Below are positions 4,247 through 12,935 of a stretch of 21,924 bases of DNA, in pieces. Made by a program: the position numbers and the translations under genes. Each line of letters opens with the position of its first letter. Position 1 is the first letter of the stretch. The stretch comes from a virus (lineage: Duplodnaviria; Heunggongvirae; Uroviricota; Caudoviricetes): IMG/VR virus record IMGVR_UViG_2609459833_000005, positions 1-21,924 of that record. One strand, 5' to 3'. The notes beneath the pieces were generated by a model that saw only the letters and a list, made by a program, of their open reading frames with translations, was not told the DNA's origin and did not search any database.

Positions 4247-6685
4247 TTAAAAATCAGCCTGACTCGGGATCAGTTTTTGCCAGATAACTGAAACGTATTT
4301 TGCCTGGTAACGGGCGTCATCAAGTGCATTATGGCGCTCACCTTCGAATGGAATAGCCGTTCTGGCATCGAAGTCTATGGCTTTCCCCAGCTCAACGATT
4401 GTGCGTACATCGCGATCGTTGTAGTAACGCCACGGGCAGGGGATCCCCTGCCGTTCGTATGAACGGCGCAAAATCGTGTTTTCGAAGTTGGCTCCATTTC
4501 CCCAGACCTGAACAAAAAATTCACCGGAGTTTTCGTCGATAAATTCCCGCAATTGTAACAGTGCATCATCTAACGGGATTTCATCGGTCATAATGGCAGA
4601 CTGCGCTTCACGTGATTGCTTCAGCCACCTTTTAATGACGTCACGATCAATGACTCCGCCAGCAGTTTCCAGATCGATAGTCTTACTAAATTCCGGTCCC
4701 ATATCTCCGGTTTGCGGATCGAAAAATATTGCATCTATTGAGATAATCGGGGCATCAGGATTTTTGCCCATTGTTTCAAGGTCAATCATCAGATGGTGCC
4801 ACAACCTGCTGGTGGATGTGCTTTTACGATGACCGTTCACCTTAATTAAGGGATTTGCTGTCTCGCCTATTTCATTATTGTCATTGGCATGTTGATCGCC
4901 TTCGGTGCACTCCTTGTTCGGGAGTCCGGCACTTTCTATTTCCTCTGGATCTTTTTCCCGGGCTTCATCCTGGCTTTCTTCGTTGAATGTCTCCTGGTAG
5001 GTTGCGTCACCCATCACTGCGCCACAATCAGGGCAGTTACCACCACCAGTCTGATTGCATGCGGTACAAACTTTTTCCTCTTCCTGTTGCACGACTGGTT
5101 CAGGTTGTTTCGTTTCTGGCTCGTTTTGTAACGCATTTGGGCTGTTTTGTTCCGCTTTCTGGTCGTTCTGTTCCGATTCTTGCTGGTTCTGGTTTACAGA
5201 ATCGCGGGTTTCAATCCCCTTTACCCATTTCGGATCATTCGGGTCGCTAATCCCTGCAACAAATTCTCCGCGAGAGGCAGCAAGCAACTTATCGGCGTCA
5301 GGCTGGCTGATATTGGCTGCCTGCATAATTTTGTTTACTTCGTCAGCGGTAACTTTTACCTGTGACTTGTCATCCAGCGGCTGCGGGTCCTGATGATGTT
5401 CAACTGTATCCGCTGCCATTGTTTCAGCCGTTGCCTGTTCATCTGCCATTGCGCCAGATGGTTGCGGGTTATCTTCATCATTTTTTTCTTCTTCTGTTTT
5501 GCACTCAGCAGCCAGTCCGCCGTTAATTTCTTCCAGGATATCTTTTTCCGGTGTATGCCGGGCAGCCATGAGCGTTTCAGCTGTGGGATTCTCGTGATCA
5601 GTTTCTGTCAGGTTGGCATTGATATACCCCTGAAGGCGCCCCGGGTAGTGATAAAACTCAGGGTGGGCGCTTCGGATAAGTGCAAAAATAGCTGCGCGGG
5701 AATAGTCCAGGATACCAGGGGTTGCGCGAAGTGCTGCGGACCATTCCCTGAACGGACTTTCTTTTTTCAGGACGATTTCTTTTGCGCGACGATAAACGCT
5801 GCCCGGAATTTCATAAATATTAAAATCCATCGGAAGTGTGGCTGCTGCAATCTCCACATCCAGCGCATCGAAGGTGTGTACTAAATTCGGATTGCGATCG
5901 GTTTTGTTCCCGCCACCGGCATTTGCACCGGAAGCCGTACGGGTGATACGCGAAACACGATTTCCTTTCATCCACTCTTTTGTCAGCAGACCCCGATCAG
6001 TGTAATCAGCGTCCAGGTATGCCTCGAAAAAAGCAGTTATCAGTCCCAGGTCTGAATTACCGGGATTAGGGAAAACTTTGTCAGTGTCGCGTACCAGTTT
6101 GTGAAGGTCGCGAATCTCCAGCGGGTCGAGCAGCTTTGTTTTGTGAGAAATGGCCAGGGCAGTAACAGCCGGCAGTTCTTCCGCCCGTGCTATATGTAAT
6201 GCCTGAAGTTCTTCCCGTGCAACGTGCGTTACTGGTTTTTCGCTGCTGTGTTGCGCAAGCCAGCGAATGGGCAGCTCCTGACCAGAAACCGGCAGGAGCA
6301 TATTCTCCTCAATCTCCGTCATGTCTTCGCCGTTGACGTTGGTATTGTCAGTACTGGCTGGTTTCTCCTGCACGGAGGGAGAGGGCGCGATAAATACCAT
6401 TGTAATGCCATCTTCCCCGCCTTTTTCGTATCGGTTGCAGAATTCGGTATCAAACACGCCTTCAGGTGGAAGGTCATTCACAACGGGTAAATGGACGCGA
6501 ACGGGTTTTTTAAAGTCGTCTTCATCATAATCGTTGTCATCCATTGCGGTAATGCAGCGGGAGATGGCAACAGATAATTTTTTTGCTGTAGTCCAGTAAA
6601 AACCACCTTTAATTCCCAGACGTTTTCTGACTTTGTCATTTTTTGCTTCGCAATATAGCGCAAATTCTTCTTTATCAGTGCTCAT
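4247..6685 (-). CDS. Exodeoxyribonuclease VIII-like prophage protein with C-terminal DEDDh (DnaQ-like) 3'-5' exonuclease domain
   Basis: 812-aa ORF; C-terminus has MIDLETMG (Exo I D-x-E) and [10 protein letters not shown] (Exo III with His); internal zinc ribbon [16 protein letters not shown]; long acidic low-complexity linker. Position matches the early-left recombination gene of lambdoid prophages. Confidence 0.6.
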
Positions 6686-6777
6686 TGATAAACCTCATTA
6701 CAGATTTAAGGGTGAACAAATCCCTGCCATTGCTGGCATTTTTAATCCGTTGGTATGGTGTTAATATGGCTGGAGGG

Positions 6778-10678: not shown

Positions 10679-11722
10679 GTGAGTATGGCTAATGCCTGGC
10701 TCAGATTGTGGCATGACATGCCAAATGATCCCAAATGGCGAACCATTGCCAGGGTCTCAGGACAGCCAATCGCAACAGTGATGGCGGTGTATATCCACCT
10801 TCTGGTGAGTGCGTCACGAAATGTCACGACATGTCACGGCGTGTCACTACGTGGTCACATTGATGTCACGACGGAAGATTTAGCAAGTGCGCTTGATGTG
10901 ACGGAAGACGTAATTGATTCAATTTTGCATGCAATGCAGGGGCGGGTTCTGGATGGTGACCTTATTTCCGGATGGGAAAAACGTCAGGTGCTGAAAGAGG
11001 ACAATGGTAACGTTTCGCAAACGGCAAAATCCCCGGCAGAGCGCAAGAGAGCGCAGCGGGAGCGCGAAAAGCTGCGGAAATATGATGCTGATTGTCACGA
11101 TGAGTCACGACGTGTCACGCATCTGTCACGACAAGTCACGACAGATAAAGATACAGATACAGAATTAAACCCCACACATAACGCGCGCATGCGCGAGAGT
11201 GCTCCAACCGGTGAGTCGCATGGTGCGCCGTTGCAGACAGCCGAACCTGAATACCTGGACGGCCTGAGCGAACCGATCGGGAAATTTTCGATGACTACTG
11301 TCTGGCAGCCGTCGTCGGATTTTCGACAACGGGCAGCAGTGTGGGGTATGGCTCTGCCTGAGCCGGAATTTACACCTGCTGAGCTTGCCGCATTCCGGGA
11401 TTACTGGATGGCGGAGGGGAAGGTTTTCACGCAGGTTCAGTGGGAGCAGAAATTTGCCCGCCACGTGCAGCACGTCAGGGCACAGGTAAAACCAGTCAGC
11501 AAGGGGGTAAGCCATGCAGCATCAGGTGGCACGGCATCACGGGCAGTTCAGGAAATCCGGGCAGCACACGAACAGTGGGAACGTGACAACGGATTTATCA
11601 GCAACGGAAACGGCCTGGAAGCTGTGGGAGCTTATGGGGGAGGTGTATTCGAACCGCTGGACACAGAAGAACGGGGCCGCACCTTCGAAGCTCTGGATTG
11701 CCCAGATTGGCACGATGACTGA
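10679..11722 (+). CDS. Replication initiation protein (lambda O-like / YdaU-like), contains the putative phage origin iterons
   Basis: 347-aa ORF immediately upstream of a P-like gene; two clusters of GTCACGA repeats inside the coding sequence, as in lambda O/ori. Confidence 0.55.
   Translation: MSMANAWLRLWHDMPNDPKWRTIARVSGQPIATVMAVYIHLLVSASRNVTTCHGVSLRGHIDVTTEDLASALDVTEDVIDSILHAMQGRVLDGDLISGWEKRQVLKEDNGNVSQTAKSPAERKRAQREREKLRKYDADCHDESRRVTHLSRQVTTDKDTDTELNPTHNARMRESAPTGESHGAPLQTAEPEYLDGLSEPIGKFSMTTVWQPSSDFRQRAAVWGMALPEPEFTPAELAAFRDYWMAEGKVFTQVQWEQKFARHVQHVRAQVKPVSKGVSHAASGGTASRAVQEIRAAHEQWERDNGFISNGNGLEAVGAYGGGVFEPLDTEERGRTFEALDCPDWHDD
10811..10874 (+). repeat. Iteron cluster 1: six direct copies of GTCAC(G/T)(A/G) at about 10-bp spacing
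   Basis: gcGTCACGAa atGTCACGAc atGTCACGGc gtGTCACTAc gtgGTCACAt tgatGTCACGAcgg, read directly from the sequence. Confidence 0.8.
11093..11143 (+). repeat. Iteron cluster 2: five direct copies of GTCACG(A/C) at 10-11 bp spacing, followed by an AT-rich stretch (candidate ori)
   Basis: tGTCACGA tgaGTCACGAc gtGTCACGC atctGTCACGAc aaGTCACGAc, then agataaagatacagatacagaattaaa. Confidence 0.8.
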
Positions 11723-12176
11723 ACAGCAAATCCGGCTGGTCTGCCGTCAGTGCATGGACCGCTGCCGGGCGGGTGAAACGTGGCCCCCGGACCTGGCTGA
11801 GTTTGTTGCGCTGATTTCGGAGAGTGGGGCAAATCCATTTGGTCTTACGGTGGATGCAGTGATGGAAGAGTACCGGCGCTGGCGCAATGAATCCTGGCGA
11901 TACGACGGGAGTGATAAATACCCGTGGCCACAGCCTGTGCTGTACCACATCTGCCTCGAAATGCGTACCAGAGGGATTGAGCGCCAGATGACGCAGGGTG
12001 AGTTAAAACGACTTGCGGAACGGCAACTGACGAAATGGGCAAAGCATGTTGGTAACGGGATGAGTGTTCCGCCAGTGCGACGACAACTGGAAGGGGCGAA
12101 ACACCCGCAAGGGCCAACGCCAATTGAACGGCTGAAACAGGAATACGAACGCCGGAAGGCAGCTGGTTTTATTTGA
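11514..12176 (+). CDS. Lambda P-like replication protein (helicase loader); start uncertain (11514 with strong SD, or 11634, or 11715)
   Basis: Segments TMTEQQIRLVCRQ...WPPDLAEFVALI, YPWPQPVLYHICLEMR and TQGELKRLAERQL align with remembered lambda P (ITTMEQVNAGM...SPGQFVAWC, YPWKSNAHYWLVTNLYQNMR, TDAELRRKAADEL). SD agggggt 5 nt before the ATG at 11514. Confidence 0.6.
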   Translation: MQHQVARHHGQFRKSGQHTNSGNVTTDLSATETAWKLWELMGEVYSNRWTQKNGAAPSKLWIAQIGTMTEQQIRLVCRQCMDRCRAGETWPPDLAEFVALISESGANPFGLTVDAVMEEYRRWRNESWRYDGSDKYPWPQPVLYHICLEMRTRGIERQMTQGELKRLAERQLTKWAKHVGNGMSVPPVRRQLEGAKHPQGPTPIERLKQEYERRKAAGFI

Positions 12177-12191
12177 ATCTGAGAAACGATT

Positions 12192-12935
12192 TTGTCGGAG
12201 GAAATATTAATGGAAACCGTATTTGACGCACTGAAAGCACTGAAAAGAGCCTCTTCACAGGTAGTGGCGGCCCGCCTTGGAATCAGCCGTGAAGATGCGG
12301 TCAACGAACTGTGGAAACTGAAGCGCCGCGGTGAAGCGGATAACAAGGGTTCGATGTGGCGGCTGATTCAGGCTGGTGAAAGTGAACCGATGTCACCGGT
12401 ACCGAAAGTGACAGCGCAAATGCTGACTGAGGCGATTGAACAACATGGCCCACAAACGGCGGATGAGCTGGCACTGATGTTCGGGATTACCTCCCGCCGG
12501 GCGAATTCATCGCTGGCCATGGCAATCAGCAAAGGGCGTCTGATTCGCGTGAATCAGGGCGGTAAATTTCGTTACTGCATACCGGGCGCTGATTTACCGG
12601 CAGAGCCGGAAGCTGCATCCGTAGCGGAAACCGATGGTAAAGCCTTTCCTCAGCCAGCAGGTGTTGCGTTACCTGTCCGGGAAGCAGAAACACAGGAAGA
12701 AATAAAAACGGAAAGTGTGGCGGTCACAGTGCAGTCACAGCCGTCGTTCACCAGAAAACATCCGGATGGTCTGATTTTACCATCGCTGCATGTGGCTAAC
12801 CGCGAGCTGCGCCGGGCAAAAGGTCAGGTTCAGAAGTGGGAGCGAGTCTGCGCCGCGCTGCGGGAGCTGAACAAGCACCGGGATATTGTTCGACAGATTG
12901 TCGATTCATCCGGTCGTATTGTGTCGGAAAAGTGA
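12192..12935 (+). CDS. Hypothetical protein with two winged-helix-like DNA-binding segments
   Basis: 247-aa ORF; HTH-like stretches ([52 protein letters not shown]); no family recognised. Confidence 0.5.

Follow-up and report, generated by a model that had tools for sequence, protein, structure and literature searches.

The initiator-loader junction and its closest described relatives

In phage lambda, the replication initiator gene O is followed by the helicase loader gene P, ori-lambda sits within gene O, and O and P overlap by a few nucleotides only. The DNA analysed here, IMG/VR record IMGVR_UViG_2609459833_000005 (21,924 nucleotides (nt), referred to in its full length as 'the window'), has a replication-module junction of the same layout, that is, an initiator gene (O) with iterons inside it and then a loader gene (P); at this junction, however, the two reading frames share 209 nt. 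We consider it quite probable that these 209 nt are read in two frames, with P being translated from ATG 11514 and with the constraint being partitioned between the two proteins along the overlap.

The loader is a homologue of lambda P in sequence and structure (disordered N-terminus, two helical domains and a C-terminal helix; PDB 9oa1/8v9t), although it is just 15-18% identical, whereas the initiator has a DnaT domain and is not a homologue of lambda O. Both protein families occur in the same order in phiV10/epsilon15 and in TL-2011b. In phiV10, a DnaT-type initiator is followed by a 261-residue P-like gene with an overlap of 4 nt; in TL-2011b, the initiator is followed by a different, lambda-like P with an overlap of 29 nt. 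Unlike that of the window, the initiators of phiV10 and TL-2011b end 25-35 residues after the DnaT domain, in tails that are acidic, aromatic and unrelated to the O tail described below. E. coli DnaT, with DnaC encoded downstream, shares with the window the DnaT-domain match and the helicase loader gene next to it, but the initiator of the window carries a different, iteron-containing N-terminal domain and is extended by 69 residues at its C-terminus, and its loader is P-like and not DnaC-like. Overprinted same-strand gene pairs of phages, such as lambda Rz/Rz1 and phiX174 A/B/K and D/E, have in common with the window that one strand is read in two frames, that one partner is disordered where the other is constrained, and that both act in one pathway. 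In contrast to those pairs, the overlap in the window is terminal (a 3' end lying on the 5' end of the next gene) and not nested, it joins a helicase loader to an initiator, and it is absent from the reference annotation. It is thus a fresh instance of known things, namely overprinted phage genes and lambda-type initiator-loader modules, and not a new type of system. Our search of the literature on these genes and on the domains of lambda P and O returned no account of the overlap, which is not proof of novelty. The elements of the junction are:

10685..11722, + strand: replication initiator / replisome organizer ('O-like', YdaU-type), 345 residues from ATG 10685, open from GTG 10679
11514..12176, + strand: lambda-P-like helicase loader at its probable full length, 220 residues (in RefSeq only 11715..12176)
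11514..11722, + strand: overlap of 209 nt, very probably dual-coding; the P frame is the O frame +1, and O codon position 1 is P codon position 3
11501..11507, + strand: Shine-Dalgarno (SD) sequence AAGGGGG of the loader gene, within the O codons Lys-Gly-Val; the boundary of homology to TL-2011b-type initiators lies here (~11503)
11634..11636, + strand: in-frame ATG of P residue M41, from which many RefSeq records of other genera begin P; this residue is conserved and internal, and unlikely to be the start
11715..11722, + strand: ATGACTGA, in which the in-frame ATG of M68 (the RefSeq start) overlaps the O stop TGA at 11720-11722

Geometry of the overlap and start of the loader gene

ORF-O extends on the + strand over 10679..11722 (347 residues from GTG) and ORF-P over 11514..12176 (220 residues from ATG), with the P codons beginning 1 nt past the O codons. 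The original prediction had pointed to a 209-nt out-of-frame overlap and to a strong SD sequence with an ATG at 11514, and both are borne out: positions 11514-11722 are shared with both frames open, and AAGGGGG at 11501-11507 is separated from ATG 11514 by a 6-nt spacer, a signal kept in nearly every lineage. The P frame contains TAA at 11508-11510; ATG 11514 is therefore the earliest start open to ORF-P. For comparison we took 37 loci from genomes that represent species in many genera of Enterobacterales, together with 80 viral contigs; counts of 25 lineages refer to loci with intact O and P that are less than 90% identical to each other in nucleotide sequence, and conservation counts of P residues refer to 36 non-identical lineages. 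An overlap of 149-242 nt in the same relative frame is found in about 25 divergent Enterobacterales lineages (of the 37 species-level loci), the geometry is also present in the 80 viral contigs, and it is identical in all 71 distinct junction sequences having O intact and wholly on the contig. In nearly every lineage an ATG equivalent to 11514 is located at -240 to -273 relative to the W90 codon, right after a P-frame stop, and GGAGG, GGGGG or GAGG lies 6-10 nt ahead of it within two conserved Gly codons of O. The ATG thereby falls at a homologous O position, [H/N/Y]-[A/V] following Gly-Gly.

Family profiles and structure prediction bear on the part of P that precedes M68. That lambda-P-like sequence exists upstream of 11715, as had been proposed, is confirmed: Phage_lambda_P (PF06992) matches from residue 58 (58.0 bits; cutoff 26), and phrog_109 ('P-like helicase loader') aligns over its positions 18-236 with residues 14-220 (E 3e-62). 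The 67-residue N-terminal fragment alone matches PHROG 109 weakly (E 1e-3), and phiV10 P aligns with residues 17-220 (E 2e-22); a search of NCBIfam with P gave no matching model. When the P family profile is compared with the PDB, lambda P is matched (E 9e-7) with its residue 81 facing residue ~67 of the window protein (near T67/M68), so that lambda P, too, has ~80 residues before that point. The AlphaFold2 model of the 220-residue P is disordered at 1-25 and has helices at 28-45, 48-53, 59-66, 70-85 and 94-103 (predicted local distance difference test, pLDDT, 70-79), followed by another helical domain (113-180, pLDDT 80-90) and by a helix at the C-terminus (203-216). Its best Foldseek matches are lambda P chains, the full-length chain 9oa1_Z being aligned over 214 columns (E 3e-6). 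Lambda P comprises domains I (about 1-29, disordered in solution), II (about 30-119), III (about 120-192) and IV (193-233) (PMC12661323). The P model has this four-domain layout provided that translation starts at 11514, and the 153-residue RefSeq form is without the counterpart of domain I and about half of domain II. The segment concerned is:

11595..11711, + strand: conserved helices of the P frame, residues 28-66, equivalent to the N-terminal half of lambda P domain II (pLDDT 73-79)

Sequence conservation leads to the same start. Among 24 aligned P homologues, down to 46% identity, the stretch before M68 is one of the best conserved parts of the protein, with M41, R48, W49, K52, N53, G54, P57 and W61 each conserved at 90% or more; for residues 34-67, conservation persists in homologues of only 40% identity. 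W38, W49, K52, N53, G54, P57 and W61 are the same in all 36 lineages, and A34, W35 and L37 are kept in 32-33. M68 is present in 26 lineages and replaced by L, F or C in the other 10, which have no ATG at the position equivalent to 11715. M41 is encoded by ATG in 35 of the 36 (CTG in L024), and an SD-like sequence precedes it only where the preceding residues are Trp-Glu, with none being seen where they are W-Q or W-T. The W38 codon is TGG in every lineage, and its G is the third base of a four-fold degenerate Val or Leu codon, or of a Met codon, in the O frame; since this G is invariant though free to vary under selection on O only, P includes residues upstream of M41. Five lineages (L015, L020, L023, L026 and L037) offer no alternative start (ATG, GTG or TTG) before the conserved A34-W38 motif, and a start at 11634 would cut the helix formed by residues 28-45. 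It is quite probable, at the strength given to the explanation as a whole, that ATG 11514 and not 11715 is the real start of P.

The annotation reads differently. In E. coli, RefSeq and the Prokaryotic Genome Annotation Pipeline (PGAP) extend the initiator to 11722 and give a 153-residue 'replication protein P' from 11715, with an 8-nt overlap; phage records in GenBank start P as RefSeq does or later still, and the long P ORF is open in all of them. The database homologues P0001-P0120 are annotated at three lengths, 140-153, 177-181 (M41 equivalent) and 214-223 residues (11514 equivalent), with PGAP choosing the shortest form in E. coli and the middle form in Salmonella, Klebsiella and Citrobacter. 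On these sequence comparisons, the short forms are a systematic annotation error, by which the loader is shortened by 67 residues in E. coli and by 40 in other genera. Pipelines commonly treat long same-strand overlaps as start-codon errors and trim one of the genes; here the trimming would itself be the error, and expression, modelling or classification of these loaders based on RefSeq would proceed from a truncated protein. An additional short P isoform, reinitiated at ATGACTGA, may exist in the E. coli clade.

Constraint in the two frames and alternative readings

For analysis of selection, P-guided and O-guided codon alignments were prepared and every site was classed as nonsynonymous (N) or synonymous (S) in each frame, with ratios of nonsynonymous to synonymous change (dN/dS) being calculated for a close set and for a set of 60-93% identity. 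In the 5' half of the overlap (11514-11618), the ratio in the O frame is 0.10 for the close set and 0.58-0.60 for the 60-93% set (confidence interval (CI) 0.38-0.84), and in the P frame it is 0.19 (CI up to 1.4-2.3) and 0.60-0.63 (CI 0.37-0.99), respectively. In the 3' half (11619-11717), dNN/dSN for the P frame is 0.03-0.18 and dNN/dNS for the O frame is 0.70-1.06; sites that are synonymous in P and nonsynonymous in O change there at 0.167 and 0.60, as compared with 0.18-0.21 and 0.65 for synonymous sites in the single-coding flanks. About 70 codons are thus very probably dual-coding, the 5' half appearing to be where O is chiefly constrained and the 3' half where P is. This reading, one of those offered at the outset, is supported by the conserved geometry, the start signals and the signatures of selection.

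Two segments of O are concerned, one in each half:

11534..11587, + strand: conserved helix of the O frame, ASRAVQEIRAAHEQWERD, lying over the poorly conserved and predicted-disordered N-terminus of P
11636..11677, + strand: acidic tail motif of the O frame, GGGVFEPLDTEER; the shortest O variants end 15-18 nt downstream

Within the former, (T/A)ASRAVQ(E/Q)I..A...W, conservation among 14 proteins reaches 90% or more at T91-I99 and is complete at W106; the segment is predicted to be helical at low confidence (AlphaFold pLDDT ~58), and the rest of the tail is predicted to be disordered. The latter has the consensus GG..(L/F)EPLD.EE(R/W), most of which is forced by SNRW..KNG and W61-I62 of P. In intact modules, the O-frame ORF of more than 300 residues ends at -61, -58, -49, -46, -25, -94 or -97 relative to W90, and never upstream of the conserved helices of P. 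When P codons are resampled synonymously, the mean chance per lineage that O stays open to -97 is 0.39, and O is open to that point in all 25 lineages; the converse chance that the first 35 codons of P stay open is 0.70 on average. The products over the 25 lineages, 2.5e-11 for O and 2e-5 for P, assume independent lineages and are overstated. In each of the 25 lineages the O tail is net acidic (D+E 5-12; K+R 0-6).

The choice among P codons in the tail region is also biased. G42 is GGG in 10 of 12 cases (background 0.24, p 2e-5), S46 is TCG in 11 of 13 (0.16, p 8e-8), R48 is CGC in 15 of 23 (0.28, p 2.5e-4), Q51 is CAG in all of 10 (0.65, p 0.014) and K52 is AAG in 22 of 25 (0.34, p 4e-8). These favoured codons, which are otherwise disfavoured, yield Gly, Glu or Leu in O, and the bias at synonymous sites of P retains Gly, Glu, Leu, Glu and Glu of O. 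Wobble bases of P are 50% G and 12% T in this region, versus 32% and 21% in the rest of P. The averaged OLGenie-type test detected no constraint on O in 11619-11717, and solely the per-site test of synonymous codons detected a signal. Conservation at synonymous sites, which had been put forward as a check on the overlap, hence gives a divided answer: the average rate at P-synonymous sites is neutral in the 3' half, while a site-specific codon bias keeps O residues. Selection on the O tail through P codon choice is suggestive and not conclusive, given that the lineages are non-independent. When the C-terminus of O was used in a word-indexed search of proteins, most matches were partial sequences from E. 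coli and none were initiators with other partners, and this search was set aside. Such initiators came from tblastn against phages.

Several observations weigh against a dual-coding overlap of this length, or against the reliability with which it is seen. The dN/dS values come from our own simplified code, written after the idea of OLGenie, and not from the published program. P residues 1-33 are weakly constrained, and for the close set the constraint is non-significant, as the width of the CI given above indicates. In 11619-11717 the O-frame ratio is not different from 1 and P-synonymous sites evolve at the neutral rate of the flanks, so that the last ~34 residues of O are, on average, without amino-acid constraint of their own and could be largely tolerated read-through. 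Avoidance of A-runs, instead of selection on O, could account for part of the codon bias at K52, and the resampling products suffer from treating lineages as independent. AlphaFold confidence for P residues 28-103 is moderate (pLDDT ~70-79), and RefSeq/PGAP is consistent in giving the short P in E. coli.

These points bear chiefly on a reading, possible though rather unlikely in our judgement, in which both ORFs are translated and the last 35-45 or so residues of O (from ~11600) are a functionless run-on that stays open as P codons rarely create stops. It accords with the O-frame ratio and the neutral P-synonymous sites, with an O stop that varies from -97 to -25, and with a tail that is predicted to be disordered and whose motif is mostly forced by P. 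On the other side, O never stops before -97 in 25 lineages in spite of the ~0.39 chance each; rare GGG, TCG and AAG are favoured exactly where they give O a Gly or Glu (p 2e-5 to 4e-8); P wobble bases are shifted towards G and away from T, and all tails are net acidic, as are, with aromatic residues, the unrelated initiator tails of TL-2011b and phiV10. A different division of the overlap would result if P started at M41 (ATG 11634), leaving 89 nt of overlap and 11514-11633 non-coding in the P frame. This start is almost always an ATG (35 of 36 lineages), has GGGAG 3 nt upstream in the window, marks the beginning of phrog_33198 and of many database proteins of 177-181 residues, and is used by many RefSeq records of Salmonella, Klebsiella and Citrobacter; P residues 1-33 are, moreover, poorly conserved and predicted to be disordered. 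We nonetheless regard it as improbable: A34, W35, L37 and W38 are under constraint specific to the P frame, the helix 28-45 spans M41, GGGAG occurs only where the residues are W-E and is no conserved SD, L024 has CTG at M41, homology to phiV10 P and PHROG 109 begins at residues 14-17, the upstream SD, ATG and open frame are conserved, and dN/dS of P residues 1-35 is below 1.

A start at ATG 11715 (153 residues, with stop-start coupling at ATGACTGA and an accidental upstream frame) is the PGAP annotation in E. coli, and the ATGACTGA layout is typical of termination-reinitiation coupling. It must be judged highly improbable, however, as residues 34-67 have a dN/dS of 0.03-0.18 with seven invariant residues, 10 of 36 lineages have L, F or C in place of M68, homology and predicted helices continue upstream, no SD lies ahead of it, and P would lose its equivalent of lambda P domain I together with about half of domain II. 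We attach next to no probability to the reading that the 3' end of O contains a local frameshift or a sequencing error, or that a programmed frameshift yields an O-P fusion. Such a fusion could be read from phrog_15931, a 482-position profile matched by both O and P, and from the existing fused proteins P0106 and P0032; but the same geometry is seen in 71 distinct junctions with intact O from many genera, passage from O to P would require a +1 shift, P has its own conserved SD and ATG, and P0106 and P0032 are singletons resulting from internal deletion or rearrangement. Programmed frameshifting as a conserved feature was therefore rejected; no stable RNA structure at 11470-11560 and no conserved fusion were found, slippery sites not having been systematically searched. 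The error postulated by the original prediction as an alternative is refuted by the junction's occurring in 1253 of 5426 complete E. coli genomes and by the arrangement's being the same in every intact-O example fetched, those from many other genera included; an O ending upstream of 11514 in relatives, which would have signalled a local frameshift, is not seen in any lineage with an intact module. The profile phrog_15931 is itself chimeric, the initiator matching positions 1-347 and P 279-482, and the two singleton fusions are one O-P protein made by internal deletion and one DUF1627-P protein.

Origin of the overlap, the initiator and the prophage

For the probable dual-coding overlap starting at 11514, the relatives with shorter overlaps suggest a history. 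The TL-2011b initiator is 81% identical to that of the window through the DnaT domain; identity ends at ~11503 (O fragment residue 81), just ahead of the SD and ATG of P, and the TL-2011b initiator itself ends ~25 residues past the break. Relatives with a small overlap, phiV10 at least, also have the N-terminal region of P; the most economical account is therefore an extension of the initiator across the 5' end of the loader gene, and the long overlap most likely arose by such overprinting. The break in homology coincides with the ribosome-binding site of P; the C-terminal 69 residues of the initiator thus travel with the loader gene. A cassette of DnaT domain and P (from ~11200) is 86-99% identical in L001, L002, L003 and L005 despite unrelated N-terminal halves of the initiators, which carry DUF1376, helix-turn-helix (HTH)-type and 'pyocin large subunit' names. 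Upstream of the DnaT domain, the initiators are, by these comparisons, a mosaic sharing what would be the loader-recruiting end.

It is tempting to speculate that the 69-residue extension overprinted on the 5' end of the loader gene mediates the initiator's contact with the loader or DnaB, the 209 nt then encoding both interaction regions. The break at the ribosome-binding site of P and the variety of N-terminal domains on one cassette fit this suggestion, which we nevertheless hold to be doubtful. If true, initiator-loader specificity could not be separated by the recombination that shuffles mosaic modules.

As to mechanism, an origin-binding replisome organizer with a C-terminal DnaT domain would bind GTCACG iterons in its own gene and, as lambda and DnaT biology suggests, recruit the P-DnaB complex through the DnaT domain and the tail; from homology, P is expected to bind DnaB and to be recruited by the phage initiator. 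We infer that translation yields both proteins across the whole overlap, and that O uses this region to recruit P and DnaB. Ribosomes would initiate P independently at the SD and ATG within O, 209 nt before the O stop, and no coupling would be needed, as no RNA structure there suggests any: folding of 11470-11560 yields -17.7 kcal/mol (z +0.64), no better than shuffles, and an RNA structure coupling P initiation to O translation was rejected on that score. In the 5' half (11514-11618), the conserved helix of O would face a weakly constrained, probably disordered P segment, the counterpart of lambda P domain I, or 'N-terminal lasso'. In the 3' half (11619-11722), the strongly conserved helices of P domain II would largely dictate a disordered acidic tail of O, whose frame, negative charge and GG..(L/F)EPLD.EE(R/W) motif would be kept through synonymous codon choice in P. 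Two replication proteins sharing ~70 codons in a widely conserved case constitute a natural system for the evolution of overprinting, and the overlap could show whether co-adapted partners become locked together in mosaic phage genomes. This question is directly testable, as some single-base changes leave the protein of one frame unaltered while abolishing the other. Peptides predicted to be diagnostic of each product are:

HHGQFR, SGQHTNSGNVTTDLSATETAWK and LWELMGEVYSNR: predicted to be unique to the P N-terminus
DNGFISNGNGLEAVGAYGGGVFEPLDTEER: predicted to be unique to the O tail

Translation of the initiator likely starts at ATG 10685, which has GAGG 5 nt upstream and is also the start used by PGAP, where the product is named DnaT-like ssDNA-binding domain-containing protein. 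Its further elements are:

11285..11485, + strand: DnaT DNA-binding domain of the initiator (PF17948, 62.3 bits, cutoff 25; NF002770 positions 82-156; AlphaFold pLDDT 80-87)
10813-10872 and 11094-11142, no strand assigned: two clusters of GTCACG iterons with 10-nt phasing inside the initiator gene (repeat families D1 and D2)

PF17948 is the sole Pfam match in O. Residues about 194-269 match DnaT positions 82-156 of 179 (NF002770) at 94.9 bits, below the equivalog cutoff of 201 for the full-length protein, which identifies O as a DnaT-domain protein and not an orthologue of DnaT; matches among PHROGs are to replication initiation or primosomal families of DnaT or DnaD type. The designation 'O-like' thus holds for position, role and internal iterons, but not for homology to lambda O. 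The iteron clusters lie ~260 nt apart, with an inverted repeat at 11121-11146, and the region is, by analogy, the probable replication origin of the prophage.

The window as a whole is a lambdoid prophage adjoining potC/potD, and E. coli SW070917 is 100% identical to it over 11200-12200. The gene order along the + strand is an HTH repressor-like gene (minus strand, divergent), a cro-like HTH gene, YdaT, the initiator, the P-like loader, DUF1627 and DUF977. Among the 5426 complete E. coli genomes, 1253 contain the junction (1 kb); about one quarter hence carry the module, O157:H7 strains such as EDL933 and Sakai in several copies. Cargo, with coordinates converted from a reverse-complement record, includes an IS4 insertion (about 5365-6711), RelB/RelE, dicB, hokD and several PGAP pseudogenes (DUF551, ead/Ea22-like), and the prophage may be partly defective, given the pseudogenes and the insertion. 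For the DUF1627 gene, the mechanical ORF at 12192-12935 opens at TTG 12192, while PGAP and homologues start at ATG 12210, with GGAGG at 12198-12202 ahead of it.

Decayed copies of the module are found in Erwinia (L033 and L041), where P lies at the margin of a decayed prophage and the O tail upstream of it survives as a relic full of stop codons, and in Leclercia (L040, NCTC13032), where the P gene is frameshifted. The two Erwinia loci had been considered as natural controls having P without an overlapping O and were dropped, carrying no weight, when translation identified them as decayed prophage ends. Finally, the module is present in L003 (PP818812.1, 'Actinobacillus phage vB_Apl-pPE4') at 86% nucleotide identity to E. 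coli prophages and with DicA, YdaT and DUF1627 as neighbours; the attribution of this sequence to the host Actinobacillus pleuropneumoniae looks doubtful.

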